Below are positions 1 to 14,719 of a DNA stretch of 19,706 nucleotides, in pieces. Positions within the stretch are counted from its first letter, which is position 1. The number at the start of each line of letters is the position of its first letter. The position numbers and the translations under genes were made by a program. The notes under the pieces are model-generated. The model ran no database searches. It saw only the letters and a list, made by a program, of their open reading frames with translations, and was not told the DNA's origin. Source of the stretch: a virus (Duplodnaviria > Heunggongvirae > Uroviricota > Caudoviricetes); IMG/VR virus record IMGVR_UViG_2617270940_000004, positions 1 through 19,706 of that record; one strand, 5' to 3'.

Positions 1-128
1 ATTTCAGCGCAGACAATCACATCGCTGCCCGGTTGTATGCGCGAGGTTACCGACTGCGGCCTGAGTTTTTTAAGTGACGTAAAATCGTGTTGAGGCCAAC
101 GCCCATAATGCGGGCAGTTGCCCGGCAT
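1..128 (-). CDS. insB: IS1 transposase InsB, 5' part only (truncated by window edge)
   Basis: Minus-strand reading from ATG at 128 gives [43 protein letters not shown], matching recalled InsB N-terminus; overlaps insA 3' end in another frame as in IS1. Confidence 0.8.
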
Positions 129-322
129 CCAACGCCATTCATGGCCATATCAATGATTTTCTGGTGCGTACCGGGCTGAGAGGCGGTGTAAGTGAACTGT
201 AGTTGCCATGTTTTACGGCAGTGAGAGCAGAGATAGCGCTGATGTCCGGCGGTGCTTTTGCCGTTACGCACCACCCCGTCAGTAGCTGAACAGGAGGGAC
301 AGCTGATAGAAACAGAAGCCAC
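47..322 (-). CDS. insA: IS1 transposase subunit InsA
   Basis: 91 aa [46 protein letters not shown]... matches recalled IS1 InsA (zinc-finger N-terminus, HTH C-terminus). Confidence 0.9.
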
Positions 323-557
323 TGGAGCACCTCAAAAACACCATCATACACTAAATCAGTAAGTTGGCAGCATCACCGGCTACGCAGAAGCAGCCAAACG
401 CCCCGTGGTTGCGCCGGAAGCAATCGGGCAAGGAAGTGCTGGTGAATAAAAACGAGCACCTTGCGGACGCTGTCGCATCGATTTACACCGGTATGCAAAC
501 TGATCAATTCCGTCAGGTTCGCGATGTTCTTGCTGGAATTTTATAAGTTGATAATTG

Positions 558-577
558 ATAGGTAAGTGCTTATCTAT
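558..577. promoter_or_regulatory. Family A palindromic site (putative operator), imperfect
   Basis: ATAGGTAAGTGCTTATCTAT; near-palindrome matching recurring consensus ATAGGTAAGTAYTTACCTAT. Confidence 0.4.
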
Positions 578-587
578 TACCATGAGA

Positions 588-610
588 CCACTATATATAG
601 TGGTTTTTTT
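588..610 (+). terminator. Rho-independent terminator candidate
   Basis: Perfect hairpin CCACTATATATAGTGG (588-603) followed by T7 run (604-610). Confidence 0.6.
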
Positions 611-811
611 AATTGGGCTACACATAATAAGCATCGTAAAACGTAACGCCCACCGAGCCGCTGCCAGCTGCATGAAGCGCTGACAAAGTTCGCTGTCGAT
701 TGCACTGGCCCGAGCCAGTTCGAATACCTCTAAGCCGAGTTTAACCACTTTGTGGCTTGGCGCTGCTGGGTCAAAATTGGCGTATCAAAAGAAGTCTAAA
801 GGAAAGAAAAC

Positions 812-1690
812 ATGAAATTTACGAAACTGACCGATCATCTGAAACTTGCCGCAGACAAACTCGTGGGGTTTAAACCAGAGCCTTACGAGTTGAATCCCGG
901 TTTCGGCAAGACAACGGAAAGCATCTACCTGATGGTTGACCAGTTCCACACACTGTTTCAGCACCCACGCCGTGCCATTCCAGATCCGGCATTACTGCGT
1001 CTGCGTGCCAAGCTGATCCACGAAGAAGCAGTTACTGAGGGCATCCCGGCAGCCAAAAATGGGGATATGACGGCACTGCTGGACGCGATGGCTGACTTCC
1101 TTTACGTGGGCGTCGGCACAATGGTGGCCATCAAAGGCGGCATCTCGACGGGCATGAGTTACTACACCCAAGAGCAGAGTGTTGATCGCTTCATCCACAC
1201 CATCATGGTTCCGGGCAACACGGTCTTTGACGATATGGCTATCCCGTTTGAAGAAGCAAAAGAAGCTGCATTAATGCTGAATGCGCTGGCTGACAAACTT
1301 GAAGCGAAGCCGATAAGCGATTCCGAATTGGTGCAGGAGCTGCGCCGCGTGATGAACAAAATCTACGTTGCCTGCATGATGACCTACCGTCTGGCTGATT
1401 TTCTCGGAATCGATATTGTTGAGCTGGTGGCAGAAATCCACCGTTCCAACATGACCAAGCTGTGGCCGGCTGACGCCGAAGAGCGTCGTGTGGCGGTAGA
1501 GAATTGCAAATATGACAAGGAAGACCTGGGCTTCCGCCATGCTGAAGGGACTGACATGATGATCGGTTTCAGGGTTTCTGATGGCAAGATCCTCAAATCT
1601 CCCACCTACAGCGATGTGGATCTGACTTGCTTTGTTGAGAAGGCGAAGTCCTCATCTCTTTACGAGATGGTAAAAAATAATTGTAAGTGA
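812..1690 (+). CDS. MazG/HisE-like all-alpha NTP pyrophosphohydrolase (two tandem repeats; possibly dimeric-dUTPase-like)
   Basis: 292 aa; RBS AAGGA 8 nt upstream of ATG. Contains LIHEEAVTEGIPAAKNGDMTALLDAMADFLY (EExxE ... DxxxD pattern typical of MazG/HisE-type pyrophosphohydrolases) and a second similar half (ELRRVMNKIYVACMMTYRLADFLGIDIVELVAEI). Family call from motif recollection only. Confidence 0.5.
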   Translation: MKFTKLTDHLKLAADKLVGFKPEPYELNPGFGKTTESIYLMVDQFHTLFQHPRRAIPDPALLRLRAKLIHEEAVTEGIPAAKNGDMTALLDAMADFLYVGVGTMVAIKGGISTGMSYYTQEQSVDRFIHTIMVPGNTVFDDMAIPFEEAKEAALMLNALADKLEAKPISDSELVQELRRVMNKIYVACMMTYRLADFLGIDIVELVAEIHRSNMTKLWPADAEERRVAVENCKYDKEDLGFRHAEGTDMMIGFRVSDGKILKSPTYSDVDLTCFVEKAKSSSLYEMVKNNCK

Positions 1691-1753
1691 GTACTTATCA
1701 TTATATATTGCCTTGGCGTGTTTTATTGTCCAAGTTCTTAATTGCTCATTGCA

Positions 1754-1783
1754 ATGGTGGCCGAAGAGCCACCATTTTTTTTT
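1754..1783 (+). terminator. Rho-independent terminator
   Basis: Stem ATGGTGGC / GCCACCAT with loop CGAAGA, followed by T9 run. Confidence 0.75.
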
Positions 1784-1833
1784 ACTCCCTTCCTAGCCTT
1801 ACACACTTCTGACAGATAAACTTGTATAAAATA

Positions 1834-1853
1834 ATAGGTATGCACTTACTTAT
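1834..1853. promoter_or_regulatory. Family A palindromic site (putative operator), degenerate
   Basis: ATAGGTATGCACTTACTTAT directly upstream of the ThyA-like gene; outer ATAGGTA...TTAT conserved. Confidence 0.4.
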
Positions 1854-1870
1854 CTTGTGTGAGGTTGATT

Positions 1871-2974
1871 TTGTCTATCCTACTGAATCGAGACTTTACG
1901 AACGGTCAGTTTGCCAGTGGTTCGTATGCCAAAGTGGTTGAAACGGTGCTCAACACTGGCGTTCACGCGGGTGATCGCACCGGAACCGGCACAAAAAGTG
2001 TTTCATATGTCCCTTCCTACTACATGCTGACGGGCGGATCTGTTCCACTTATCTCCGGAAAAGCCGTCAATCTGAAGCCGTTACTGGTTGAGCTGGAGTG
2101 GTATCTCAAAGGAACAGGCAACATCCAGTTCCTGAAAGACAATGGCGTCAAAATCTGGGATGCCTGGGCCGATGAAAATGGCGATTTAGGCCCGGTCTAT
2201 GGCAAGCAATGGCGTCGGTGGGAAGACACTCGCATCGTGAGCCATAGCGAGTATCTGCGCAAAATCGACACGTTCCGTGAGCGCGGGTACAAGGTCGAGG
2301 GGTATCTGGGCGTAAGTGAAGATCGCGTTGTGTTGTCCCGTGAAATTGACCAGCTACAGCGTATCGTTGACACGCTTCGCACCAACCCTACAGATCGTCG
2401 CATCCTGCTGAATGCCTGGAATGTTGGCGAACTGGAAGATATGAAGCTGCCGCCATGCCATTTCGTGTTTTCACTGTGGAGTCGCGAGCTGGACTTTGAG
2501 ACCCGACTGACTATGGCCACCGACATTGGCATACAGCACAACCGCCACGGCCACGAGTCCATGTACACCCAGATGCTGTGTCTTCTGGAAAGAGATGGCG
2601 GCATTACTGAGAACATGCTGGACGAGCTGGGCATCCCGAAACGCATTCTGAACTCATGCCTGGTTCAACGCAGTGTCGATACCTTTGTTGGTATGCCGTT
2701 CAACATCGCCGGTTACGGCATTCTCACCCACTTCCTCGCGAAGATCACCGGCCACATGGCTGGCGCATTCGTGCATTTTGGCTTTGACGTTCATCTCTAC
2801 GACAACCACATGGAAGGCGTTGAGGAACTGATGAAGCGCGAGCCGCCCAAAGAGTCCGACCCGGTTGTCATCTTCCCGCATGAATGGGCCGAACTGGACG
2901 ACTTCAAATGGGAAGGTGTGCAGGTGTGCGGCTACAGCCCTCTTCCGTGGATCAAGGTTCCAGTGGCGGTGTGA
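1871..2974 (+). CDS. thyA: Thymidylate synthase family protein (ThyA homologue with two large insertions and an N-terminal extension)
   Basis: Contains DRTGTGT, IWDAWADENGDLGPVYGKQWRRW, DRRILLNAWNVGELEDMKLPPCHFVF (catalytic Cys in PCH), QRSVDTFVGMPFNIAGY and HLYDNHM, all matching recalled E. coli ThyA blocks. Start uncertain: ORF track gives GTG 1859, but GAGG at 1860-1863 looks like the SD for TTG 1871 (TTG 1865 also possible). Confidence 0.85.
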   Translation: MSILLNRDFTNGQFASGSYAKVVETVLNTGVHAGDRTGTGTKSVSYVPSYYMLTGGSVPLISGKAVNLKPLLVELEWYLKGTGNIQFLKDNGVKIWDAWADENGDLGPVYGKQWRRWEDTRIVSHSEYLRKIDTFRERGYKVEGYLGVSEDRVVLSREIDQLQRIVDTLRTNPTDRRILLNAWNVGELEDMKLPPCHFVFSLWSRELDFETRLTMATDIGIQHNRHGHESMYTQMLCLLERDGGITENMLDELGIPKRILNSCLVQRSVDTFVGMPFNIAGYGILTHFLAKITGHMAGAFVHFGFDVHLYDNHMEGVEELMKREPPKESDPVVIFPHEWAELDDFKWEGVQVCGYSPLPWIKVPVAV

Positions 2975-2975
2975 T

Positions 2976-3389
2976 ATGGCCAGAGGGATGTATGTGTTGT
3001 GTGAAATTGAAGGTGTGCTGGCGAGAGCCAGCCATCGCAAAGCAGTGCCTGATGCGGATGCAGGCGCTCTTATTGCCGGTGATGAACTCATCTTTCCCAC
3101 CAGCCGCATGTTGCGTGGTTTTGCTCGCTCCGGTGCTGAAGTGGTGCTTATCAGTAGTCGTCCGGAAGCGCTCGAAGGCCCAACCAAGCGCTGGCTGAAG
3201 GACTTCGGCATTGATTATGACTGGCTCCACCTGGTTCCGCGCGGTGTCAGTTTTGAAACCCATATCAAGCGCACGCTGGCAGAGCACAAAGGCGACTTAC
3301 TTATCGCCGCACTGGTTCATGATCCGCGTCTGCGTTCTGCGCTGGCAAATTCTCACCAGCGACCAACCATCTATGAGGTAAGCCAATGA
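2976..3389 (+). CDS. HAD-superfamily, NT5C-like 5'(3')-deoxyribonucleotidase-fold protein with non-canonical motif I (ExE instead of DxD)
   Basis: ATG at 2976, 1 nt after the ThyA stop; stop overlaps DHFR start (ATGA). MYVLCEIEGVLA aligns with the HAD/NT5C motif hhhhDxDGVL; later blocks (VVLISSRPEALEGPTKRWLKDFGIDYDWLHLV, LLIAALVHDP) fit HAD motifs II-IV. Weak, motif-level call. Confidence 0.4.
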   Translation: MARGMYVLCEIEGVLARASHRKAVPDADAGALIAGDELIFPTSRMLRGFARSGAEVVLISSRPEALEGPTKRWLKDFGIDYDWLHLVPRGVSFETHIKRTLAEHKGDLLIAALVHDPRLRSALANSHQRPTIYEVSQ

Positions 3390-3862
3390 AGATGATTGCA
3401 GCTGTCGGCCGCAACTATGAAATCGGCATTGGCAACGAACTTCCCTGGCGTTGCCCGACCGATCTGAAACTGTTCAAACAACTCACCAAAAACGCCACTG
3501 TCGTGATGGGACGTAAGACGATGGAAAGTCTTAAACGCCCGCTGCCAGAGAGCCATAACCTCGTTTTGACGCGCTCTCGTGGCTATATCCCCAATGGTTT
3601 CTACCCCGCTGGCATCGATGACGTTTTAAAACTACCAGATCCGGTCTGGGTGATTGGTGGCGGGCAGATTTACTCGCTCTTTATGCCACACGTTGAAGAG
3701 ATCTGGCTGTCGCATATTGGCGTGGATGTGTCGGGCGCGGATGCGTTCTTCCCGGCGCCAATGATGCGTTCTTTAGGGTTCGTACCAGTCGAAACGGCTT
3801 ATACCCAACGTGCAAATGAGGATGAGCCTGGCTTTTTGCAGATCGTATACAGAAGGTCGTAA
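3386..3862 (+). CDS. folA: Dihydrofolate reductase
   Basis: 158 aa; MKMIAAVGRNYEIGIGNELPWRCPTDLKLFKQLTKNATVVMGRKTMESLKRPLP parallels the DHFR N-terminus (IAA..IG..MPW..P.DL..FK..T....V.MGR.T.ES...PLP); VIGGGQIY matches the glycine-rich NADPH loop. GAGG RBS 7 nt upstream. Confidence 0.85.
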   Translation: MKMIAAVGRNYEIGIGNELPWRCPTDLKLFKQLTKNATVVMGRKTMESLKRPLPESHNLVLTRSRGYIPNGFYPAGIDDVLKLPDPVWVIGGGQIYSLFMPHVEEIWLSHIGVDVSGADAFFPAPMMRSLGFVPVETAYTQRANEDEPGFLQIVYRRS

Positions 3863-4506
3863 TGGATTACCGGATTGGAATCACTGGCGCACAGGGCAGT
3901 GGGAAAACAACCCTGGCAAGGTACATCGATGCGCACTATGGCATTCCGTATGTGGATGCTGGTGTTGGCAAGCTGATGAGCAGTCTGGGGGTGAAGGTTG
4001 GCGAGCGTTTGCCCCTTTACGAGCGTCTTCAGGTTCAGATGGAGATTGCCAGACACATCGAGATGATCACCCGCGGCGTTGAAGGTTTTGTCATCGACCG
4101 CACGCCAGCCGATGTCATGGCTTATACGCTTGACCTGGTCGGCCAGACCAACGAAGACCGCTGCATCGAGCTGGCTCTCGACATTGAGCAGTTTTGCCAC
4201 AAAGCGACCATTTCCAACTTCAATGCTATAGCGGGTCTTCGCCCGGGCGTTGAGCTTTCCAGCAAAGATCTCGCGCGTCCCCAGCGAGGATCGCTTGACC
4301 GTCTCTATGTTGCTCGCATCGATGCACTTATGTGTGGCGAGCTGACGAAAATTAGCGCCCTTCCCCATACCGGCGATTTGCAGGTTTTCATTATCTCTGA
4401 AAAGTGCCGCACGGTTGAGGCGCGAGCCAGATCGGTATTGCGTGTGCTGGAAAGAGCCACTGAAAACATCGAGAGCCGTATAACAGGACGAGTGACCTTC
4501 CACTGA
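3862..4506 (+). CDS. P-loop nucleotide kinase, T4 gp1-like deoxynucleoside monophosphate kinase candidate
   Basis: Walker A IGITGAQGSGKTTLA at N-terminus; FVIDRTPADVMAY resembles the PDTRQDHE region of T4 gp1 as recalled. Start overlaps DHFR stop (TAATG). Confidence 0.55.
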   Translation: MDYRIGITGAQGSGKTTLARYIDAHYGIPYVDAGVGKLMSSLGVKVGERLPLYERLQVQMEIARHIEMITRGVEGFVIDRTPADVMAYTLDLVGQTNEDRCIELALDIEQFCHKATISNFNAIAGLRPGVELSSKDLARPQRGSLDRLYVARIDALMCGELTKISALPHTGDLQVFIISEKCRTVEARARSVLRVLERATENIESRITGRVTFH

Positions 4507-4569
4507 ATGTTGTTCCCCTGTTGGGCAGTGTGACAATAAGACACGCGAAATGAATTGAGGAAAAACAGA

Positions 4570-4989
4570 ATGATAGATGAACTTCCCCTGTCGGATGAAT
4601 TAGATCGCAAAGCGATTGAAGCACTGATCCGTATTGCTGACGAACAATCCCGTTCCTTAATGAGTGAACGTGAAGCACGTCTGGCTATCCGAGCAGTGTT
4701 TGAGTCCGTTCAAGGTCTTGTTGGGGAAGAGGTTGGTGAAGCCATTAATGCGGCGATGTCGCAATTCAATGGCGGCACCAAGCGCTCTCTGTTTCCTATG
4801 CATCTCAAACTCTCGGGCGGTACGGTTTTTTATGTGTCCGTTTGCCTGGAGACTAACCAAATCCAGCTCCTCAACACGTCAACGGGCGAATGGCGTGAGC
4901 CGGTCGTCTGCGAAAGCGGCGAGGACGCACTAAAAAAGGCTGCTCAGTTTGTGCGTGGCGCACTGCTGAAAGGCGCGAAGAAGCTGTAA
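4570..4989 (+). CDS. Hypothetical protein
   Basis: ATG at 4570 with GAGGA 8 nt upstream (ORF track TTG start at 4555 lies inside the SD); 139 aa, no recognisable motif. Confidence 0.5.
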   Translation: MIDELPLSDELDRKAIEALIRIADEQSRSLMSEREARLAIRAVFESVQGLVGEEVGEAINAAMSQFNGGTKRSLFPMHLKLSGGTVFYVSVCLETNQIQLLNTSTGEWREPVVCESGEDALKKAAQFVRGALLKGAKKL

Positions 4990-4998
4990 GGAGTACCA

Positions 4999-5553
4999 AT
5001 GACCACGATTGTCGGTGGCGTCGATATTGAGTCCACGGGGCTGGACTTCACATCCGGCCACAAAATTATCGAAATCGCGATATCTCGTTATGAACTGGAA
5101 ACCCAGAAGCGCATTGACAGCCTTGAGATGCGCTTCAACCCGCGTCGTAGCATCGATCTGAAGGCGCAGGCTGTACATGGTATCTCTCTGGAAGAACTGG
5201 CTGCTGAACCGCTGTTGGCTGATCACGCAGGTAAGATTGCTGCATATATGGGGGCATGTAGCGCGTTAGTCGCCCATAACGGGGAGGCTTTTGACCTTCC
5301 GTTCATTCGCCACGAGTTCGGAAGCTATGGAGTGAAATTGCCAGAAATCCCTCTGGTTGACACTCTATTTTCCCTGTGGGCTACCGAGGATGGGAAGCGC
5401 CCACGCCTGGAAGAGCTGGCATTCTCACTTGGGTTCACTTACGACCGTGAGAAAGCCCACAGTGCTCTCTACGATACTGATCTGATGATGCAGTGTTTCT
5501 TCAAAGCCCGAGAGAAATACGGCTTCTTCAAACTCCCATTCGAAAGCGCCTGA
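4999..5553 (+). CDS. DnaQ-like (DEDDh) 3'-5' exonuclease
   Basis: Exo I DIESTGL, Exo II ALVAHNGEAFDLPFI, Exo III HSALYDTD; AAGGAG RBS 5 nt upstream of ATG. Confidence 0.7.
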   Translation: MTTIVGGVDIESTGLDFTSGHKIIEIAISRYELETQKRIDSLEMRFNPRRSIDLKAQAVHGISLEELAAEPLLADHAGKIAAYMGACSALVAHNGEAFDLPFIRHEFGSYGVKLPEIPLVDTLFSLWATEDGKRPRLEELAFSLGFTYDREKAHSALYDTDLMMQCFFKAREKYGFFKLPFESA

Positions 5554-5568
5554 TGGCGCTTTTTCTTT
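5543..5568 (+). terminator. Rho-independent terminator candidate overlapping the exonuclease stop codon
   Basis: Stem AAAGCGCC / GGCGCTTT with loop TGAT, followed by TTTTTCTTT. Confidence 0.5.
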
Positions 5569-5681
5569 GCCTCCAGTTCCTTTAACTGCCTGTAGTTATG
5601 ACTTTTCTGCCTGATAGGTTTTGCCAGAATAAGCTCAACCAAAACGCGGAAATGCACCAACGAAAACATAAGGAGTTAAAA

Positions 5682-6554
5682 ATGAGCGCAGTTTCAAACA
5701 TTGTTAAAAACGATGACCTGGATGAATTGACTGCAATGCTGCAATCTCTCGAAGAACCGGTTCTGAAAGCTGCGAAAATGAGCGGTATCGACGAGATCGA
5801 CGATCTTCTCTCTGGTCTGGATGATGCAATCGCAAAACCAGTCGAGGCGGTGGCAGATGAAGTCATGAATGTCAGCTCTACCGGCGATCTGAGTGGCGTT
5901 CTGGAAGAGCTTGAGATTGCACACGAATCGGTGAAGGTCGAGGAGCCAGAGCGTGGCCCTATTGCGGAGATAGTGGACGAGCCAACACCTGAACTTGATG
6001 CTCGAAGCGCTGAGACCACCGATATAGCTCCAACGCTTTTACCTTCAGTGGAGTCTGGGCCTAAACCTGAAGAAGAGCAGCCAAAACACCAGAAGGCACA
6101 ATCAAAGCGTGCGCCGACCAAACCTCGCTTCACGCTGGAGGGTAAGGATGAATCGTTCTATGTGACAGCCGGTCTGGATAGTGAGCGCTTTACTGCCGCA
6201 TTCGAAGGCGCGCCGATCAAAGCGAAAGACAAAATCTTAAACCTCCTGAACTGGTTTAGTGGTGGCCCGGAAATCAGCGTCTACACGGTAATCGCAATGC
6301 GCCATATTCTTGATACGAACACGGCGACCAGCAATAGCATTAAACTGGCGCTAATGAGCTACCCGGAGAAACCATATCCACTTAACACGGCTTCGACTCA
6401 GGCTGGCCAGATGATGGCTGTGTTTCCGGCCACAGGCATTGCCACCAGAGAAGGTGGAAATCTAACGCTTAATAAAGAGTCGCCGATCGTCAAAAAATTC
6501 ATAGCGGAGTATTCCATTGAACAATGTTCCTCTGCACGATCTAAAGCACCCTGA
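5682..6554 (+). CDS. Hypothetical protein with acidic, low-complexity N-terminal half and a globular C-terminal domain
   Basis: ATG at 5682 with AAGGAG 7 nt upstream (ORF track start 5598 is an upstream TTG). N-terminal ~150 aa rich in D/E/P/S/A; C-terminal part ordinary composition. Confidence 0.55.
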   Translation: MSAVSNIVKNDDLDELTAMLQSLEEPVLKAAKMSGIDEIDDLLSGLDDAIAKPVEAVADEVMNVSSTGDLSGVLEELEIAHESVKVEEPERGPIAEIVDEPTPELDARSAETTDIAPTLLPSVESGPKPEEEQPKHQKAQSKRAPTKPRFTLEGKDESFYVTAGLDSERFTAAFEGAPIKAKDKILNLLNWFSGGPEISVYTVIAMRHILDTNTATSNSIKLALMSYPEKPYPLNTASTQAGQMMAVFPATGIATREGGNLTLNKESPIVKKFIAEYSIEQCSSARSKAP

Positions 6555-6601
6555 GAGCTTTAGGACGCTGGGTAAGCTCATTGCATACCCAGCATCGATA
6601 A

Positions 6602-6653
6602 AACGCGCCAGAGAGCTTCCCGTTTGCGAATCTGGCGCGTTCTTCTTTGTTTG
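6602..6653 (+). terminator. Rho-independent terminator candidate (preceded by a second hairpin at 6568-6594)
   Basis: 11 bp perfect stem AACGCGCCAGA / TCTGGCGCGTT with 18 nt loop, followed by CTTCTTTGTTTG. Confidence 0.55.
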
Positions 6654-6677
6654 CTATCCGTTGGATTAAATGAAAAA

Positions 6678-6697
6678 ATAGGTAAGTATTTACCTAT
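6678..6697. promoter_or_regulatory. Family A palindromic site (putative operator)
   Basis: ATAGGTAAGTATTTACCTAT, near-perfect 20 bp palindrome 12 nt upstream of the methyltransferase start. Confidence 0.55.
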
Positions 6698-6709
6698 CAG
6701 AGTAAGGTA

Positions 6710-7303
6710 ATGATCGCAGCCGAAAAAATCAAAAAGCGAGAGCGTGATGCCTCTCTTCGCGACCTTTGGCGCACACCGCAGTGGTTGTTTGTCGCCATCC
6801 AACGTTACATAGGCGTAAAGTTCGATGTGGACGTCGCCTGCAACAAAGATAATGCTCTCCTGACGAACTTTATCGGTGTTGAGCGTGATGCGCTCAAGTG
6901 CAGTTGGGGAGAACCTGGCACTGTGGCGTTCCTTAACCCGCCCTACTCCAAAATCACCCCCTGGATAGATGCAGCCATTCGCGAGCAGGCGCGTGGAGTG
7001 ACGACGGTCATGCTGATACCACAATCCCTCGATACGCAGTGGTACGAGCGTGCGGCTGAATGCGCCAACGAAACCGTCATCTTGTCTGGCGGCCGCGTGG
7101 CGTTCGTTGAGCCGGATGTTGAACTTGGGCTGGTGGAGGTGAACATCAACCCTGGTGGCAGCATGTTGCTTATCTTCCGTGGCTACTGTCAGGAAGCTGG
7201 GCACACCATCAGCAAGATACCGCTGGCGGTGATGAAAAAGCTGGGTGGTTATGACCCTGCCAATGTTGTCAGGAAGAAGAGACCACGTAAAAAGGCAGCG
7301 TAA
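6710..7303 (+). CDS. Orphan DNA N6-adenine methyltransferase (phage Dam-like family, NPPY motif)
   Basis: 197 aa; DLWRTPQWLF ... FDVDVACN ... GTVAFLNPPYS follows the layout of phage-type N6-adenine MTases; no restriction endonuclease gene adjacent. Confidence 0.75.
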   Translation: MIAAEKIKKRERDASLRDLWRTPQWLFVAIQRYIGVKFDVDVACNKDNALLTNFIGVERDALKCSWGEPGTVAFLNPPYSKITPWIDAAIREQARGVTTVMLIPQSLDTQWYERAAECANETVILSGGRVAFVEPDVELGLVEVNINPGGSMLLIFRGYCQEAGHTISKIPLAVMKKLGGYDPANVVRKKRPRKKAA

Positions 7304-7505
7304 ACACCAGTCTGGGAGTTAGTTTGAGAACCTGCTTCCGTATATATAAATAACTAAGTACTAATTATTAATATATACAGACGCAGGCTTTTTAAGACGT
7401 GATTTCCAAACAACTCCCAGACCGTTTTACACCTCCAGAACCCACTGGAGCCCCTCTCCAGACGCTCTAGAATCGATTTTATGAACCACAGTAAGGAAAA
7501 CTATC

Positions 7506-7736
7506 ATGGTATACCCGACGAACGTCGTAGCGCTCGTTGAGAGCGATTTTCTGGCCACAGTGCGCGACATGATGAAAGATCGCGATAAGGCTTTCAGTCT
7601 CTACGAATGGTCGCTCAAATGTCTTCATTCAGGCGAGCACAAAGAGCTGGTGGAGCAGCTGTTAGGGGAACTCATCAATGAGGTGTTTGCCCTGAACGTC
7701 CAGCTTCATGGGCGAGAAATTAATCAATCAATATAA
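7506..7736 (+). CDS. Hypothetical small protein (76 aa)
   Basis: ATG with AAGGA 8 nt upstream; stop codon overlaps the family A palindrome at 7736-7755. Confidence 0.5.
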   Translation: MVYPTNVVALVESDFLATVRDMMKDRDKAFSLYEWSLKCLHSGEHKELVEQLLGELINEVFALNVQLHGREINQSI

Positions 7737-7755
7737 TAGGTAAGTACTTACCATT
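7736..7755. promoter_or_regulatory. Family A palindromic site (putative operator)
   Basis: ATAGGTAAGTACTTACCATT; core GGTAAGTACTTACC is a perfect 14 bp palindrome. Confidence 0.55.
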
Positions 7756-8330
7756 CAAAACGCCACTAACCAGTGATACAATCTATCCGCTTCCGGATAC
7801 TTTCGGCAGCTCGACCTGATGGGTGGGGGATAGCGTCACTGGCGTCAGGTTTAAAAAAGCTCACTACCAGCGTAGAACCGGCACCGTTTAGGGGTTGGGG
7901 AAGGGGGAACCAAAGTGGGCAGAGAGAAGGGTCACTTTATGATTGTCGAGTCTGGAGTGTTTCGAGAGGTTGAATCCAGTACTCCCCTTCATAAAGTGTG
8001 GGAAGATCTCGGTTCTGGGGTGCTGTCATCCATAACTTCCCAAGCCTAAGCTGGCAGTAGACTTAGGTCATAACTTTTCAGGTTATGAAACGACCAGGTT
8101 GGTGAGGAAATTTTGTACTCACCTCCCTGGGAGAGTATTACCTGAAAAGACAACCTCTCACTTCGTTCGAGGTGAACTTCACTCACTTCGTTCGTTCAGT
8201 TCAGGTTTTATTAAAACCTGTTCTGGGAAGTAATTTTTCTTTTCTAAAAAATTTTTAATATTTACACGCACGCGTGCGCACACGCGCGAGGGGAAAAAAA
8301 ATCGTCGCGGCGCGCGATTCTGGAGCCAAA

Positions 8331-8939
8331 ATGACGACCAAGACCCCAGCCCGGCAACATACTGGCTGCCGCACGAAGTCCAAAGCCAGATACCAAACCC
8401 ACCAGCAATCCCGTACCAACTTCAAAACCCCCGTAGTCGAGTTCAATCCCCAGCTCAAAACCGTAAAAGTATTCAGTGATGGCTCCTGCCTCAAAAATCC
8501 GGGCGGGCCGGGCGGTTACGGCATCGTTCTCCAGTATCGAGGCGAAGAGCGCGAGCTTTCTGAGGGCTTCCACAGCACGACCAACAATCGGATGGAGATG
8601 ATGGGCGCCCTGATTGCGCTGGAGCGTCTGAAGTACCCCTGCAACGTGATCCTGCATTCCGACAGCCAGTATCTTAAAAACGGCATGACGCTCTGGATGA
8701 AAGGCTGGAAGCGTAACGGATGGATCACGTCTGAGAAGAAGCCAGTCAAAAACGTGGATCTCTGGAAACGTCTCGACGCGGCCGCCAGTCGTCATAATGT
8801 CCGCTGGAAGTGGGTTAAAGGCCATGCAGGTCATCGCGAGAACGAAATGTGTGACCGTCTGGCGAAGATCGCCGCCTATTCCGCAGCTGATATGCCTCAC
8901 AAGCATGACATTGGGTTTTTGTCACAAAAAGATAAGTAA
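8331..8939 (+). CDS. rnhA: Ribonuclease HI homologue with ~45 aa basic N-terminal extension
   Basis: [75 protein letters not shown] and [20 protein letters not shown] match recalled E. coli RNase HI blocks. Start set at ATG 8331 (GGAG 5 nt upstream); ORF is open from 8274. Confidence 0.8.
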
Positions 8940-8951
8940 GTATTTACCTAC
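8932..8951. promoter_or_regulatory. Family A palindromic site (putative operator)
   Basis: ATAAGTAAGTATTTACCTAC overlapping the RNase H stop codon (TAA 8937-8939). Confidence 0.5.
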
Positions 8952-9031
8952 TATAATAAATCAGGTATCTTATAAATCGTCAGGATGACGAAGTACCGGT
9001 TAGGTACGGTTCCAGGATGGAACGCCAAAAG

Positions 9032-9052
9032 GCGGCTGGCTTGGCCAGCCGC
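9032..9052 (+). terminator. Hairpin, weak terminator candidate
   Basis: Stem GCGGCTGGC / GCCAGCCGC with loop TTG, followed by AACTCTTTCT (poor U-tract). Confidence 0.3.
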
Positions 9053-9081
9053 AACTCTTTCTGACACTGAATGGAATCCAC

Positions 9082-9582
9082 ATGGCCCGTCAAACGTCTT
9101 TCACTTCTTTCAATAAACGTCCCCGTTCAATTCGCCTGGTGCTGACCGAGCTGTTTAGTGGTCGTGTTTCCGCACGCCTTACGGAACTGGAAGAACGAGT
9201 GTTTGAACTGGAGAAGCGCATTAATGCGCAAGCTACCGCCATAGCTAATCTGGGCACGACAGTAGGCATGGAGAAGGTGCGTAATAGCGTCGCTTCTCGT
9301 GTGTTGCGTGAAACCCGGACACACAAGGACAGTTCTCATGGAAAATTTTCAACGAAATCGACTGAAGCCAATGGCCTACGGAGTGATTTTGGCAACTCTG
9401 GCAGCGATTACCGTACCAGCCGGTCAGAGCCTTTTGATGCCGGGCACAGCTACTTCCACTGCCACCACAGCCTTGCAGATGACACCCCTGCCCGAACGAC
9501 CTCCTGTCTCTCTGGATGGGATGCTGATGGACACGATTCCAGCTCGACCTGCGACTCCGGATCTTCCTTCTGCTGTGACTGA
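9082..9582 (+). CDS. Hypothetical protein with predicted coiled-coil segment; 3' half doubtful
   Basis: 166 aa ORF; residues ~30-75 (RLTELEERVFELEKRINAQATAIANLG) look coiled-coil; C-terminal third is S/D/G/C/H-rich and overlaps an alternative-frame ORF (9338-9595), so the 3' extent is uncertain. Confidence 0.35.
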   Translation: MARQTSFTSFNKRPRSIRLVLTELFSGRVSARLTELEERVFELEKRINAQATAIANLGTTVGMEKVRNSVASRVLRETRTHKDSSHGKFSTKSTEANGLRSDFGNSGSDYRTSRSEPFDAGHSYFHCHHSLADDTPARTTSCLSGWDADGHDSSSTCDSGSSFCCD

Positions 9583-9595
9583 GGCTATTGTATGA
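9338..9595 (+). CDS. Hypothetical small membrane/secreted protein (alternative frame to 9082-9582)
   Basis: ATG 9338 with AAGGA 9 nt upstream; hydrophobic segment MAYGVILATLAAITVPA; stop overlaps start of next ORF (ATGA at 9592-9595). Confidence 0.4.
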   Translation: MENFQRNRLKPMAYGVILATLAAITVPAGQSLLMPGTATSTATTALQMTPLPERPPVSLDGMLMDTIPARPATPDLPSAVTEAIV

Positions 9596-9780
9596 AATGG
9601 AACTTCCAGAAATTCACCTTGATGATTGTTGGCTTTACCGTTTTTTTGTTTAGCGGCTGGATCATGAATCTGGTGAAACTTGTGAACGATGGTGATCTCC
9701 AGTCTCATGCCGGAGTGACACTTGCGCGTGTCGTGGGCATTTTCGTTGTTCCGGTGGGCGGCATCCTCGGGTTCTTTTGA
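9592..9780 (+). CDS. Hypothetical small membrane protein (62 aa, two predicted TM helices)
   Basis: GAGG 7 nt upstream; FTLMIVGFTVFLFSGWIM and VVGIFVVPVGGILGFF hydrophobic stretches. Confidence 0.45.
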   Translation: MKWNFQKFTLMIVGFTVFLFSGWIMNLVKLVNDGDLQSHAGVTLARVVGIFVVPVGGILGFF

Positions 9781-9802
9781 TGCTGAATGATTTTCTGCAT
9801 TG

Positions 9803-9820
9803 TTAAAACAAATTGTTTAG
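9803..9820. promoter_or_regulatory. Family B palindromic site (putative operator)
   Basis: TTAAAACAAATTGTTTAG; half-sites AAACAA / TTGTTT around a central base. Confidence 0.5.
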
Positions 9821-9846
9821 ACAAATGATTAATGAGAGTTAACAAC

Positions 9847-9870
9847 AAGGGCCGCTGACGGCCCTTTTGT
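9847..9870 (+). terminator. Rho-independent terminator candidate
   Basis: Stem AAGGGCCG / CGGCCCTT with loop CTGA, followed by TTGT. Confidence 0.55.
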
Positions 9871-9886
9871 ACTGAATGGAAAACGT

Positions 9887-10702
9887 ATGTTTGAGGTAAC
9901 TGCACACGCTCCCAGCACCACAGGCTTACATGCCAGGCCATCGATGACCAGTCAGGAGATCGCCGAAATGGTCGGCAGTCGCCATGACAGCGTAAAACGC
10001 ACCATTGAAAGACTCGCTAAATCCGGCGTTATTACTTTTCCACCAATGGTGGAAAAGCCCACTGCCGGGCGTCCGGCTACCTTTTACTTGTTCGAAGCCG
10101 AACAGGGTAAGCGCGACAGTATCGTTGTCGTGGCACAGCTTTCTCCTGAATTTACCGCACGTCTTGTTGATCGGTGGAGAGAGCTTGAATCCATGTTTGC
10201 CTACCACGGAACGCCTGCTATTCCGCGTACCTATAAAGAAGCGCTGGTTCATTTGCTGCGCCAGGTTGAGGAAAACGAGCGTCTGGAGAGTGAGAACGAG
10301 GCGTTGGGCGTAGCACTATCCAACGCAAAGCCAAAAGCCATTCTCATGGACACCATTTGCGGCACTGCTGATGAACTTTATGGGTTGAATGAAGCCGGTC
10401 GCATTCTCGGCACGTCCGGGGCTGTTCTGGGTGCGCTGATGGACTCGCTGGGTGATGTGTACGTTAAGCGCAAATACACCACTGTTAACCGCCAGTTCCT
10501 CAAGATCTTCATTGACCGCGGATATGGCAAAAACGTTGTCATCGGAAACGGTCGCAACCAGGCCAAGTTCACCTTTAAAGGGCTTTGCTTTGCAGCTGTG
10601 AAACTAATTGCAGCCGGGTTGATTGCCTCCAGCGCCATTGAATATGAGCCGTGTCGTGAGCATGTCGAACGTGCAATGAAGGAATCCAAACGTCTTCATT
10701 GA
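9887..10702 (+). CDS. Phage antirepressor-type regulator (Rha-like N-terminal domain + ANT/KilAC-like C-terminal domain)
   Basis: N-terminal MTSQEIAEMVGSRHDSVKRTIERL resembles the Rha family; C-terminal ILGTSGAVLGALMDSLGDVYVKRKYTTVNRQFLKIFIDRGYGKNVV resembles the ANT domain. Start uncertain (9887 or 9944). Confidence 0.55.
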   Translation: MFEVTAHAPSTTGLHARPSMTSQEIAEMVGSRHDSVKRTIERLAKSGVITFPPMVEKPTAGRPATFYLFEAEQGKRDSIVVVAQLSPEFTARLVDRWRELESMFAYHGTPAIPRTYKEALVHLLRQVEENERLESENEALGVALSNAKPKAILMDTICGTADELYGLNEAGRILGTSGAVLGALMDSLGDVYVKRKYTTVNRQFLKIFIDRGYGKNVVIGNGRNQAKFTFKGLCFAAVKLIAAGLIASSAIEYEPCREHVERAMKESKRLH

Positions 10703-10773
10703 CCGTCAGTATGGACGTCCACCTTTATGTAGCGTTTGGCCACCTTTTCAGTCACGTCACAATAACACAATTG

Positions 10774-10791
10774 AGAAAACAACTTGTTTAA
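10774..10791. promoter_or_regulatory. Family B palindromic site with conserved upstream ATAACA box (putative promoter/operator)
   Basis: AGAAAACAACTTGTTTAA preceded by CAATAACACAATTGAG; lies ~20 nt upstream of the 10811 start codon. Confidence 0.55.
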
Positions 10792-10810
10792 AAACATAAG
10801 GAAAAAACAC

Positions 10811-11383
10811 ATGTGCGACAAATGCAAAAAAACTAATGCCAAAGTTGAAAGCGTGATTAAAAAAGTTGGTGCGGCCGAACTGGTTGAGATCATGGGTCTT
10901 GTGGCTGGTCACGAAGACGACGCCTCCCCTATTGACCGCCTTTTCAGCGTTCTCAAGTTCTCAAGCATGATTGATGATCCGATTGAAATTGTGATGCTGG
11001 CGCGTCATTTCGGCGAAGCGTATCTGGAAGAGAAAGAACGCGCCGACAAACTTCAGGCAACTCTGGAAATGGTAAGCAAGCCGAAGTGCTCACCGGATTC
11101 AGTCAAGGCAGATGAAACCAACGCCAGCAAAGATCGTGAAATCGCCGGGTTGAAGTTTTCTCTGGCGATGTTGCTGGCCGCCTTCAAACTGATGTCTTCC
11201 CAGGCTGGATTCAAAATGCCTGAGCTGAACAGCGACGATCCGATGGCCGTTCGCCAGCTGCTGGGGGCAATGGCCGACCAGCTTGACGACACCAAGAGCC
11301 GTCTTGAAGACATGATGCGCGAGCTGACCCATCGCTACGACCTGAACAAACAGCCGCAAAAGATGCAGCCTTTACATCATTAA
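10811..11383 (+). CDS. Hypothetical protein
   Basis: ATG 10811 with AAGGA 8 nt upstream (ORF track TTG start 10784 lies inside the operator motif); 190 aa, N-terminal CDKCKK. Confidence 0.5.
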   Translation: MCDKCKKTNAKVESVIKKVGAAELVEIMGLVAGHEDDASPIDRLFSVLKFSSMIDDPIEIVMLARHFGEAYLEEKERADKLQATLEMVSKPKCSPDSVKADETNASKDREIAGLKFSLAMLLAAFKLMSSQAGFKMPELNSDDPMAVRQLLGAMADQLDDTKSRLEDMMRELTHRYDLNKQPQKMQPLHH

Positions 11384-11388
11384 TATAT

Positions 11389-11405
11389 AGGGGGCAAAGC
11401 CCCCT
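11389..11405. terminator. Bidirectional hairpin between convergent genes
   Basis: AGGGGGC AAA GCCCCCT perfect stem-loop between the stop of 10811-11383 (+) and the stop of 11409-11828 (-). Confidence 0.5.
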
Positions 11406-11408
11406 ACT

Positions 11409-11828
11409 CTACTTTGCGGCGTCTAACAATAAGCCGCAATTTTCGCTCATGTATGCCGCAGTTGCCGGATTGCCTCTGTCATTATTCGAATTGTTCATTT
11501 CAGGGTGAGCGTCCCAGGCCACTGATTCCTGAGATGATAGATAGACGGCAAAGTCGACGATTTCATCATCTCCGGTTTTAACGTTGCCAAGCAATTCATT
11601 TGCCTTTCTCCAGTGCTTCAGCGCGAGAATTCTGAACTGTTTTGCATTTTCAGCAGGCACTGCACTGGATTTGTCTGTGTAGATATTCGATATGTCGGCA
11701 TAAAGAGCGCATTTAACATAGCTGGTTGCCCTGCCGGTCTCTTTAAAACGTTGCTCTGTGTTGTTGGCGTAGACATTCACAGCAAAAGCGCTGGCAATTC
11801 CCAGCAATATAATTTTCTTCATCATCAT
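11409..11828 (-). CDS. Hypothetical secreted protein with signal peptide
   Basis: N-terminus MMMKKIILLGIASAFAVNVYA is a signal-peptide-like sequence; the only substantial minus-strand gene outside the IS elements; AT-rich; no clear SD. Confidence 0.5.
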   Translation of the reverse strand: MMMKKIILLGIASAFAVNVYANNTEQRFKETGRATSYVKCALYADISNIYTDKSSAVPAENAKQFRILALKHWRKANELLGNVKTGDDEIVDFAVYLSSQESVAWDAHPEMNNSNNDRGNPATAAYMSENCGLLLDAAK

Positions 11829-11971
11829 TACTCAATAAGGAGGCGACAAATATCTTACGTGTAGTTGTCAGTTGAGTATTAAGCAAACTCAATAAACTTA
11901 TAAGTATCTCCCTGTGCAGCCTGTGAATCCTTATTTATTACCTACTCAATTTTGAAATAATAACACCAACA

Positions 11972-11989
11972 AGAAAACAATTTGTTTAA
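11972..11989. promoter_or_regulatory. Family B palindromic site with conserved upstream ATAACA box
   Basis: AGAAAACAATTTGTTTAA preceded by TAATAACACCAACAAG; ~10 nt upstream of the 12000 start codon. Confidence 0.55.
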
Positions 11990-11999
11990 TGGTGCAGTC

Positions 12000-13685
12000 A
12001 TGAATACAGCCCTTTCCATCATTGACGCTATCACTCCAAACACTGATATCGACTACCGGCAGGAAATGAACGTTATCCACGAAATTGTGGCCGAGTGCGA
12101 GAAAGAGATCGCATTCATGCATCAGGTTCACGACTTCGTTTATGGCGACGAACGCCACAGCATGATTAACCGTCTACTGCGGCTCAATCACCGGCCGGAC
12201 GACGAGCGCACACGCTTTAACAGAACCTGGCTGGACAAAGTCGACCTGGAATGGGTGAAACAAAATATCTGGGCCGAGTACTGGAAGAAGGTCACGGATA
12301 TGACCAACGTTCTGTTGATCATGCCAGCATCCCGCCGCGACGAGTGGCGTGAACAGTTTATCGAGGGCAAGCAGGAAACGATCAAGACTGACAGAACTGG
12401 CTATCAAATGAAGGTTAAAGAGTTCGTTGGTGTACCTGAGTTCAAAGCAGAAACGGTCATACCAACGATGCTTAATTTGCTGAATGACAGGCACAAATAT
12501 CTCTCTGAGCGCGTGTATGGCTTGTTTAAGGCGTTGAGTCCTGCTCACAAGACCAATAAGACGAACGGCTTCAGCGAGCGTCTGATCATCGCCGACTGCA
12601 TTTCCGATTTCTGGCGGGACAGCGTCAGCGTTAACTACCGGAAAGAGGATTACATAGACGACCTGCGCGTCATGTTGCATTTCTTTGCACACAAAGAATT
12701 TATCACCATCAATCGCACGGCCGAGATGCTGTCAGCTGCGTATCGAGCAAATGACTGCCAGACCGGCGACTGGATGAATGTCGACGGAAACCTGATGCGT
12801 GTGAAGATGTTTAAGAACGGCAACGTTCACTTTGAAATACATCCTGACGTAGCCTGGAAGCTGAATGAGGTGCTGGCTTACAGTATGCCCGCTGCAATCC
12901 CGGCTCCATGTCGTACTGCGCCCAAAACACGGGCACCAAAACAGTTCGGGTTAATCCAGAAGACGATCTCCGAGCCGGTGCGTACTGCGCTTCGCGACGG
13001 GCGATCTGGCAATGACAAACGCGTATGGTACTTCTCTGATTCCGGTCTCCAGAAGTCACAGGTGGAAGAGCTGGAGCGTACACTGAGCTTTATTGGCGGC
13101 GTGCAGGAGAACAAGCACTGGCAGTTCCCGTATGAGATCGGCCATACGCTCAATACGATTGTGGCCACCGGCGTAATACCGGATACAAAATCACACCAGT
13201 TCTACCCTACCCCGCGTTTGATAGCGGAGTACGTTGCCAGAGCCATTGAGCTGAAACCAGGTGAGAAGCTGCTGGAGCCTGAAGCCGGGCGTGGAGATCT
13301 GCTGGCCTGCATCGACGCCAACCCGGAAGACGTCACCTGCATAGAAGTCGCGCCTCTCTTTGCTGATATCCTGCTTGGCAAGGGGTACACAAATACGGTC
13401 TGCTGCGACTTCATGAAGTGGTCTGAGAACAACGCAGGCTATCAGTTCGACAAAATCGTCATGAACCCACCCTACTCTCTCGGTCGTCACAGAGAGCACA
13501 CATTGGCCGCGCTGGGGCATCTGAAAGTTGGTGGGCGTCTGGTAGCAGTGCTGCCGGGCGACGCGCCAATTCTAAACTGGATGACGCTGGATAATTACGT
13601 TTATGCCAAAGGGAAGTCGTTTACTAACGTGTTTGAAGACACCGGGATTACTGTCAGCGTATACGTTTTTAAACGCGTTAAATGA
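12000..13685 (+). CDS. Large orphan N6-adenine DNA methyltransferase (C-terminal SAM-dependent MTase domain, N-terminal ~400 aa domain of unknown function)
   Basis: C-terminal FYPTPRLIAEYVA ... LLEPEAGRGDLL (motif I) ... DKIVMNPPYSLG (motif IV NPPY). No adjacent restriction gene. Start set at ATG 12000. Confidence 0.7.
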   Translation: MNTALSIIDAITPNTDIDYRQEMNVIHEIVAECEKEIAFMHQVHDFVYGDERHSMINRLLRLNHRPDDERTRFNRTWLDKVDLEWVKQNIWAEYWKKVTDMTNVLLIMPASRRDEWREQFIEGKQETIKTDRTGYQMKVKEFVGVPEFKAETVIPTMLNLLNDRHKYLSERVYGLFKALSPAHKTNKTNGFSERLIIADCISDFWRDSVSVNYRKEDYIDDLRVMLHFFAHKEFITINRTAEMLSAAYRANDCQTGDWMNVDGNLMRVKMFKNGNVHFEIHPDVAWKLNEVLAYSMPAAIPAPCRTAPKTRAPKQFGLIQKTISEPVRTALRDGRSGNDKRVWYFSDSGLQKSQVEELERTLSFIGGVQENKHWQFPYEIGHTLNTIVATGVIPDTKSHQFYPTPRLIAEYVARAIELKPGEKLLEPEAGRGDLLACIDANPEDVTCIEVAPLFADILLGKGYTNTVCCDFMKWSENNAGYQFDKIVMNPPYSLGRHREHTLAALGHLKVGGRLVAVLPGDAPILNWMTLDNYVYAKGKSFTNVFEDTGITVSVYVFKRVK

Positions 13686-13704
13686 GAGGTAAATACTTAC
13701 CTAA
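13685..13704. promoter_or_regulatory. Family A palindromic site (putative operator)
   Basis: AGAGGTAAATACTTACCTAA, starting at the last base of the methyltransferase stop codon. Confidence 0.5.
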
Positions 13705-13747
13705 TCTATGTAAGAATATAGTGACTATATGATAAGAGAAAAAACAC

Positions 13748-14437
13748 ATGAGCAATCTTCCGTTAGAGCGTTTTAACGTCAAAAGCCATGCCGACTTTCC
13801 TTTCAAATTTGTAATGAGAGGTTATGCAGAGGAAGCAGTAGGCCAGATCATCATTGACAAAGGCATTGTTAAGTTTGAAGGGGATTATGATGAATCCGCG
13901 AAAACATTCATAGACTTCGTTGCTAAACGTTGGAGCGAGCAATGGAGAGACCTGGAAAAACGTGCTCGTGAATTTGATGTATTCATGTCTGCAATTGATA
14001 CAGAAAAAACGGCTCTGGCTGCGGGTACTCCGTTAGATTTGGAGTCTCTGTTTAAAGGTGAAATGGCCTCTGCGATGTTCGCAACCATGTTTGCCGGTGA
14101 GTTTGTTCGTAGCGGGGCCAGAAACTACCTGGAGCTGGGGTACGACGTTCCTGAAATGGGTGAGTTTACCGTCACCATTCAACGCAAAGAAGGTAAGACT
14201 CCTGGCGAACGTATCGCTGAACTTGAGGCCGTTGTGGATCAGCGTAACGGCGAGTGCGTCCGTTTGATTAATGAACGTGATGCGCTGCGCGAAGAGCAGC
14301 TAAACAAAGGCTCGAACACACGCGCGGCCGCAGACATCTACTTCCAGTTGGTTGAGGAATGCCAGATCCCGCCAGGTGGCTCTTTGGTCGAGTTCGTTCG
14401 CGAATTGCAGGAGAAAGCAGAGAGGTGCGCGGCATGA
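13748..14437 (+). CDS. Hypothetical protein (229 aa)
   Basis: Long ORF with ordinary composition; stop overlaps next start (ATGA at 14434-14437). Confidence 0.5.
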   Translation: MSNLPLERFNVKSHADFPFKFVMRGYAEEAVGQIIIDKGIVKFEGDYDESAKTFIDFVAKRWSEQWRDLEKRAREFDVFMSAIDTEKTALAAGTPLDLESLFKGEMASAMFATMFAGEFVRSGARNYLELGYDVPEMGEFTVTIQRKEGKTPGERIAELEAVVDQRNGECVRLINERDALREEQLNKGSNTRAAADIYFQLVEECQIPPGGSLVEFVRELQEKAERCAA

Positions 14438-14673: not shown

Positions 14674-14719
14674 AGTTGCGCAGGGAGAGAGAGAAATCGA
14701 CGCAGAGCAGGCCCGCAAT

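Follow-up and report, generated by a model that had tools for sequence, protein, structure and literature searches.

Likely thymidylate-supply operon containing dfrA51 in the backbone of an SSU5/pHCM2-family phage-plasmid

The stretch of DNA analysed here, referred to as the window, comprises the 19,706 nucleotides of the Caudoviricetes record IMGVR_UViG_2617270940_000004 of IMG/VR. Its plus strand carries five successive open reading frames (ORFs) between positions 812 and 4506, encoding a MazG-type nucleoside triphosphate (NTP) pyrophosphohydrolase (hereafter gene 1), a thymidylate synthase (ThyA), a HAD-like protein, the dihydrofolate reductase (DHFR) DfrA51, and a P-loop kinase (Table 1). 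Judged by nucleotide identity and gene order, this cassette is part of the backbone of a phage-plasmid of the SSU5/pHCM2 family. We consider it likely that the cassette constitutes an operon supplying deoxythymidine triphosphate (dTTP) in the replication phase of the element, which would make it the thymidylate branch of its module for replication and nucleotide metabolism.

The 4-kb cassette block shares 97.4% nucleotide identity with Salmonella phage SSU5 and 99.9% with one E. coli plasmid. Matches were obtained in 708 plasmid records, chiefly from Klebsiella, Escherichia, Enterobacter, and Salmonella, 685 of which are predicted to be non-mobilizable. Over a larger distance, positions 378-18387 of the window align at 97-99% to E. 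coli phage-plasmids of ~105-115 kb. The block corresponds to genes SSU5_080-084 of SSU5 and to the pHCM2-type (IncFIB(pHCM2)) block, which contain the same genes in unchanged order, with the same lengths and junctions. SSU5, phage Cyrano, and Klebsiella phage ST13-OXA48phi12.3 (~75% DNA identity) all agree with the window in how the genes are arranged, in their lengths, and in the sequence of the three junctions. The arrangement persists in a remoter contig, where protein identity falls to 48-59%; there, the genes are separated by 2 and 3 nt and overlap by 13 nt. The cassette is already known: databases hold the block at 97-99.9% identity, thyA and a DHFR gene on pHCM2 have been reported since 2002, and the DHFR was named and tested in 2025. 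According to the secondary literature, homologues of dhfR, thyA, nrdAB, and rnhA were described on pHCM2 by Kidgell et al. 2002, and IncFIB(pHCM2) plasmids have been reported as dfrA51 carriers. The cassette genes are not discussed in the published phage-plasmid surveys examined.

An earlier note on this DNA, made from the letters alone, had suggested a phage-plasmid among the possible carriers of such a cassette, which the SSU5/pHCM2-type backbone bears out. It had also placed the cassette on an accessory segment flanked by insertion sequences (ISs). The genes belong instead to the core backbone, and the other members of the family have no mobile element beside them. Homology to the phage-plasmids starts at position 378, where a partial IS1 ends, and IS2 starts at ~18388, with the window ending inside it. 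These two ISs are later insertions, 18 kb apart, and do not specifically bracket the cassette. As backbone homology spans the whole of 378-18387 and the IS insertions are secondary, the cassette was not delivered by an IS. None of the plasmid or E. coli collections searched contained this exact combination of IS1 and IS2 positions. In contrast to SSU5, the gene upstream of the cassette is truncated by IS1 in the window, and its remnant matches the end of a 570-bp gene (7278-7847 of locus L002). In SSU5, Cyrano, and the Klebsiella phages, nrdAB lies directly upstream of gene 1, whereas it is missing in the E. coli lineage to which the window belongs (window 378-811 compared with SSU5 nrdA/nrdB at 2457-6022 of locus L001).

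The five ORFs lie where the earlier note had placed them, in agreement with the ORF list, and the tight joins that it described for the last four genes all read as claimed. The stop codon TGA of thyA (2972-2974) is separated by a single T from the ATG of the HAD-like gene at 2976 (TGA-T-ATG, 2972-2978). The HAD-like gene and dfrA51 are joined by ATGA at 3386-3389, with GAGGT located 7 nt upstream, and dfrA51 and the kinase gene by TAATG at 3860-3864, with AAGG upstream. The genes encoding ThyA, the HAD-like protein, DfrA51, and the kinase thus lie tightly together, with stop-start overlaps and Shine-Dalgarno sequences that are conserved. This coupling is real, yet not unusual, since start/stop overlaps are common in phage operons and a further ATGA overlap is present at 16703-16706 of the window. 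With regard to the start codons, thyA could begin with GTG at 1859 or TTG at 1871; the latter is likelier, because GAGG is located 6 nt upstream of it and because it is the start annotated in SSU5 and by the Prokaryotic Genome Annotation Pipeline (PGAP). PGAP starts the HAD-like gene at ~2994 and dfrA51 at 3392, which would leave gaps of 18-19 nt and 2 nt, respectively, before these genes and no overlaps. For dfrA51, the start at 3386 is favoured because the 158-aa DfrA51 reference model is matched over residues 1-158. In all five genes, the rate of nonsynonymous substitution (dN) is well below that of synonymous substitution (dS), although dS is saturated between the compared loci, which makes the dN/dS values rough only.

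The ThyA homologue recognised by the earlier note passes both curated cutoffs, with 266.3 bits against 24.3 for Pfam PF00303 and 220.9 bits against 108.35 for TIGR03284. Its alignment with E. coli ThyA consists of three blocks, in which all catalytic residues are kept (R21, R126', R127', C146, R166, S167, D169, N177, H207, and Y209 in E. coli numbering). The segments DRTGTGT, DRRILLNAWN, PPCH, QRSVD, PFNIA, and VHLYDNH are aligned, and the C-terminal VAV is kept. From its sequence, the assignment as a true thymidylate synthase, methylating deoxyuridine monophosphate (dUMP), is well supported. The protein exhibits two insertions, at residues ~119-156 (small-domain position) and at residues ~204-260 (between the strand of the catalytic cysteine and the QRS motif). 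These ~95 extra residues could point to a pyrimidine hydroxymethylase or a similar enzyme acting with the kinase and the HAD-like protein in a modified-base pathway, as hydroxymethylases of the ThyA fold are accompanied by dedicated kinases in other phages. Nevertheless, such a pathway is extremely improbable here, given that the cutoff of a thymidylate synthase equivalog is passed, that Asn177 and the terminal VAV are intact, and that no transferase or other base-modifying gene is located nearby. Moreover, the thymidylate synthase reaction yields dihydrofolate, and a DHFR is needed only where dihydrofolate forms, so that a co-translated DHFR makes sense only with true thymidylate synthase chemistry.

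That DHFR, correctly attributed to the DHFR_1 family by the earlier note, is DfrA51, a named trimethoprim-resistance determinant, which the note had missed, and it would recycle the dihydrofolate formed by ThyA. It scores 354.6 bits against a cutoff of 322 with the NCBIfam model NF047324 (DfrA51), over all 158 residues (1-158/158), and is identical to the SSU5 protein at 155 of 158 positions, with the substitutions R56S, R82K, and P116S. Residues A6, I13, D26, and S48, which were found by mutagenesis to matter in DfrA51 and DfrA50 of phage-plasmids (PMC12217456), are all present. When cloned, dfrA51 of SSU5 gave a trimethoprim minimum inhibitory concentration (MIC) of 256-512 mg/L, and the purified enzyme bound the drug ~9-fold more weakly than EcDHFR (Wang et al., AAC 2025; PMC12217456). 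For the allele of the window, which passes the DfrA51 model, the phenotype in the native operon is only predicted.

These MIC and binding values, together with the reports of the gene in antimicrobial resistance (AMR) surveys of Salmonella, Cronobacter, and Citrobacter, could suggest that the cassette is kept mainly as a resistance determinant, with dfrA51 expressed and trimethoprim selection driving its spread. We regard this as unlikely. In SSU5-type elements, no integron, IS, transposon, or other mobile element adjoins dfrA51 (PMC12217456), and overlapping codons tie the gene into a phage nucleotide operon whose conservation extends beyond one genus. ThyA-paired DHFRs also occur widely in phages, with an enrichment in lytic ones. 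A large Salmonella survey lists a trimethoprim MIC of 0.25 mg/L for an isolate with dfrA51. Resistance was seen in a Citrobacter carrier, in which, however, dfrA16 was present as well. The difference between the MIC of the native Salmonella carrier and that obtained with the cloned gene is counted here in favour of dfrA51 being silent in some carriers.

Gene 1, for which the earlier note had proposed an NTP pyrophosphohydrolase possibly acting on deoxyuridine triphosphate (dUTP), is confirmed as MazG-type. It scores 37.4 bits against a gathering cutoff of 21.3 with Pfam PRA-PH (PF01503 and relatives) and matches phrog_671 at 8e-46. Its relatives of solved structure are the DR2231 proteins and an uncharacterised putative NTP pyrophosphohydrolase (3nl9), the former being the only ones of known function. 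When the family profile is compared with the PDB, the whole chain of DR2231 from Deinococcus radiodurans is covered in three blocks, which are separated in gene 1 by insertions of ~85 and ~35 residues. The acidic metal motifs also align: E71, E72, E76, D91, and D95 (EExxE and DxxD) do not vary among 15 homologues with identities as low as 43%. The similarity is weak (E 5.6e-5, with a profile), and gene 1 is twice as long as DR2231 (292 versus ~140-150 aa). DR2231 is described as exclusively active on dUTP in the title of the paper reporting it. As DR2231 is the closest solved relative and SSU5 has no annotated canonical Dut in its first 100 kb, a dUTPase role can reasonably be inferred for gene 1. 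The annotation as phosphoribosyl-ATP pyrophosphohydrolase (HisE) was rejected as a carry-over of the family name; gene 1 matches no NCBIfam equivalog.

The last gene of the cassette encodes, as judged by its structural model, a nucleoside or nucleotide kinase. It is assigned to Pfam AAA_28 above the gathering score and exhibits a Walker A P-loop and a five-stranded core with a lid. The P-loop and the motifs DRTPxD, RPG, and QRxSLD are invariant or nearly so. The fold of the AlphaFold2 (AF2) model (pLDDT 84.5) matches the ribosylnicotinamide kinase of NadR, deoxynucleoside kinases, and deoxythymidine monophosphate (dTMP) kinases, and viral structure models give the same picture. PDB searches based on sequence, either single or as a profile, returned P-loop matches only. 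The earlier note had predicted a deoxynucleoside monophosphate (dNMP) kinase similar to T4 gp1. The gp1 likeness was rejected: the match to phrog_139 is limited to the P-loop, and neither T4 gp1 nor T4 polynucleotide kinase (PNK) is among the top 60 fold matches of the model. Based on the context of the gene, dTMP is the putative acceptor. A role of the cassette in defence or anti-defence was also rejected, as PADLOC, applied to the cassette proteins, gave only P-loop noise on the kinase.

The best sequence and fold matches of the HAD-like protein are Pnkp1 (E 7e-5) and T4 Pnkp, and it exhibits the HAD Rossmann-like fold of the polynucleotide kinase-phosphatase (PNKP) subgroup. It matches phrog_415 at 1.9e-8, and its score with Pfam HAD_PNKP (PF25109), 18.4 bits, is below the gathering threshold of 27.6. 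The HAD fold announced by the earlier note is thus retained, as a PNKP 3'-phosphatase type, whereas its NT5C nucleotidase assignment was rejected, as no NT5C match was found by sequence or fold and the catalytic aspartate is replaced. Motif I, VLCEIEGVL, aligns to VICDLDGTL of Pnkp1 and lacks the aspartate nucleophile. A profile was searched against 1.84 billion representatives, and the motifs of the relatives collected were tabulated. The residue at the nucleophile position, Glu10, is invariant throughout the SSU5-type clade, in which motif I reads C-E-I-[E/D]-G instead of the D-x-D-G-T of Pnkp1 and T4 Pnkp. The next relatives outside the clade exhibit Ala, Thr, or Gly at this position, and nearly all remoter relatives have the canonical Asp-x-Asp motif, mostly DIDGT. 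In T4 Pnkp, Asp165 forms the covalent intermediate, the D165N variant is inactive, and Asp278 binds Mg2+. The acidic residue of motif IV is not conserved in the HAD-like protein, with LVHDPR in the window and VSSSR, ICRTGP, IGCSPE, or IVASNS in family members. The protein also differs from Pnkp1 and T4 Pnkp in having no kinase domain and in an extra invariant motif gained in the clade, [F/Y]PTSRML[R/K]GF-RSG-E. Nevertheless, its gene is under purifying selection, like its neighbours, as far as the rough dN/dS values show. The protein is probably functional but not a canonical phosphatase, its motifs pointing to a non-canonical or inactive one, and, instead of being a nucleotidase, it most likely partners the neighbouring enzymes in a non-catalytic or altered role.

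Because of these PNKP matches, we considered that the HAD-like protein and the P-loop kinase could form a split PNKP healing broken RNA or DNA ends, e.g. after attack by an anticodon nuclease of the host, with free nucleotides not being the substrate. Related phage records indeed annotate the HAD-like gene as a PNKP phosphatase, and remote relatives of ~300 aa have an N-terminal extension like that of full-length PNKP. With the nucleophile missing in one partner and fold neighbours of another kind for the other, this hypothesis appears very unlikely.

With regard to transcription, gene 1 does not form one unit with the other four genes, as the earlier note had implied. The gap of ~180 nt between gene 1 and thyA contains a strong terminator hairpin, which is conserved in five loci, the stem being maintained by a different sequence in one of them (L005). 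Because of this conserved terminator, gene 1 probably has its own transcript. No terminator was found between thyA and position 5540, and a strong one overlaps the stop codon of the exonuclease gene downstream (Table 1); for these reasons, the operon probably comprises thyA, the HAD-like gene, dfrA51, the kinase gene, the ORF at 4570-4989, and the exonuclease gene.

A palindrome is dispersed over the window and lies 20 nt upstream of the thyA start. Its 14-bp core, GGTAAGTACTTACC, extends to a perfect 20-bp palindrome, ATAGGTAAGTACTTACCTAT, i.e. ATAGGTAAGT followed by ACTTACCTAT. With up to 3 mismatches, 7 sites are observed in the window versus 0.34 expected, of which 6 are intergenic and one, at 8935, overlaps the very end of the RNase H ORF. 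SSU5 has 17 sites in its first 100 kb versus 3.3 expected, distributed over the structural, lysis, and replication modules. The palindrome recurs upstream of plus-strand genes with conserved flanks, and a GC hairpin with a T-run often follows directly. Such an arrangement of palindrome and hairpin precedes nrdA in SSU5 and is retained at 555-613 of the window. An RNA hairpin at the thyA palindrome folds no better than shuffled sequences (z 0.15), and no structured-RNA family of Rfam reaches its gathering score anywhere in the window. From its distribution, the palindrome looks like a dispersed operator or a phage-specific promoter element. Its layout is comparable to that of the C1 operators of phage P1.

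Based on these observations, the likely function of the cassette in dTTP supply can be outlined as follows. Gene 1 would hydrolyse dUTP to dUMP and pyrophosphate, feeding ThyA and keeping uracil out of the phage DNA. ThyA would convert dUMP to dTMP, and DfrA51 would reduce the resulting dihydrofolate to tetrahydrofolate, as was shown for the SSU5 protein. The kinase may phosphorylate dTMP to deoxythymidine diphosphate (dTDP), or else thymidine or other dNMPs. The operon would be transcribed from near the palindrome at 1837 through the exonuclease gene to the terminator at 5542-5570, and translational coupling along this transcript would set matched protein amounts. The products would serve the DNA polymerase of the element while it grows lytically or replicates; in SSU5, a DNA polymerase, helicase, primase, ligase, and NrdAB are all phage-encoded. 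In the plasmid-prophage state, a regulator binding the dispersed 20-bp palindrome would keep the operon low. Consequently, dfrA51 would be a "resistance gene" as a by-product only, silent in at least some carriers.

Phage T4 possesses a comparable thymidylate module, comprising td, frd, nrdAB, and the gene 1 dNMP kinase, with a dNTP-synthetase complex. Both systems combine a phage ThyA and DHFR pair with a nucleotide kinase that supplies, or would supply, the phage's own polymerase. In contrast to T4, the cassette has a kinase that is no gp1 homologue, a dUTPase candidate of the MazG/DR2231 type in place of a trimeric Dut, and a degenerate PNKP-type HAD protein between ThyA and DHFR.

Several points weigh against a dTTP-supply operon of this kind. 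Enzymatic or expression support is limited to the cloned dfrA51, the functions of the other genes being predicted. For gene 1 and the kinase, the substrates are guessed from distant relatives with 13-23% sequence identity, and structurally the kinase is closest to a ribosylnicotinamide kinase domain rather than to a dTMP kinase. The pathway offers no explanation for the HAD-fold protein, whose glutamate could still sustain catalysis. As nrdAB has been lost in the E. coli lineage, the picture of a complete deoxynucleotide module is only partial here. As for regulation, the palindrome might be not an operator but a promoter or RNA element. The lone susceptible isolate is one data point, and the second resistance gene of the Citrobacter carrier obscures the contribution of dfrA51 there. 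Alternatively, but improbably, ThyA, the HAD-like protein, DfrA51, and the kinase would form a stoichiometric "metabolon" with the HAD-like protein as its scaffold or regulatory subunit, switched through the palindrome and with dfrA51 conditionally expressed. If this were true, induction-dependent trimethoprim resistance or heteroresistance would be possible in carriers of SSU5-type phage-plasmids.

Table 1 Features of the cassette and of its surroundings (positions in the window)
Feature	Position	Strand	Evidence or remark
Partial IS1 (insA 47-322)	1..377	-	InsA ORF; left inverted repeat ending at 377 read directly
SSU5_077-like gene (RNase H-like domain), 3' remnant cut by IS1	378..546	+	Final 169 bp
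Promoter-like TTGATA-17-TACCAT	555..583	+	Palindrome core GGTAAGTGCTTATC (561-574) within the spacer
Hairpin and U-run	584..613	+	-10.9 kcal/mol, z -4.8
Gene 1, DR2231-like MazG-type all-alpha NTP pyrophosphohydrolase, 292 aa, two insertions, putative dUTPase	812..1690	+	Pfam, phrog_671, PDB profile
Palindrome-like site AGTGAGTACTTATC	1686..1709	+	Overlaps the gene 1 stop, within promoter-like TTGTAA-17-TATATT; kept in five loci
Intrinsic terminator after gene 1, 9-bp GC-rich stem then T9	1753..1785	+	-14.1 kcal/mol, z -3.4
Palindrome site GGTATGCACTTACT(TAT)	1837..1853	+	20 nt upstream of the thyA start
thyA, thymidylate synthase, 367 aa, insertions of ~38 and ~57 aa	1871..2974	+	Pfam, TIGR03284, E. 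coli ThyA alignment
PNKP-type HAD-fold protein, 137 aa, motif I C-E-I-E-G, motif IV degenerate	2976..3389	+	Fold and sequence matches
dfrA51, dihydrofolate reductase, 158 aa	3386..3862	+	NF047324, near-identity to the SSU5 protein
P-loop nucleoside/nucleotide kinase, 214 aa, AAA_28 family, putative dTMP kinase	3862..4506	+	Pfam, AF2 fold
Conserved hypothetical protein, phrog_5373	4570..4989	+	Syntenic in all relatives; probably same operon
DnaQ-like 3'-5' exonuclease, last gene before the terminator	4999..5553	+	Pfam RNase_T 5.7e-20
Intrinsic terminator overlapping the exonuclease stop	5542..5570	+	-14.3 kcal/mol, z -3.95
Palindrome sites in the window	561-574, 1686-1699, 1837-1850, 6681-6694, 7739-7752, 8935-8948, 13688-13701		

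Other genes of the backbone are located at 6710-7303, 8274-8939, 9887-10702, and 11982-13685 of the window. The backbone genes include a Dam-type N6-adenine methyltransferase, found by scanning, and ORFs positioned like the RNase H of SSU5 and the Klebsiella phage, like the Rha/Ant-like regulator, and like the large DUF4942 (class I S-adenosylmethionine-dependent) methyltransferase of related records. Several of them carry the same palindrome upstream. Opposite the kinase gene, a 245-aa ORF on the minus strand (3799-4536) probably arose by chance within GC-rich coding sequence. Some database entries are frameshifted: two of them (P0039 and P0040) fuse the C-terminus of the DHFR to a garbled kinase, and thyA is split into two ORFs in one Logan contig (6945-8028 of locus L005). 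These entries are probably sequencing errors or decaying copies.

Two details of the cassette were not found described, namely the loss of the nucleophile in a conserved HAD-fold protein and the dispersed 20-bp palindrome. They are modest leads, which are small and testable, on the organisation of early genes and their regulation in SSU5-type phage-plasmids. AMR pipelines now report this block as a trimethoprim-resistance gene, and it is present in hundreds of sequenced Enterobacterales plasmids. Seeing dfrA51 as co-translated with other genes of a phage replication-phase operon that is probably repressed while the element persists as a plasmid bears on the discordance between genotype and phenotype in resistance surveillance.

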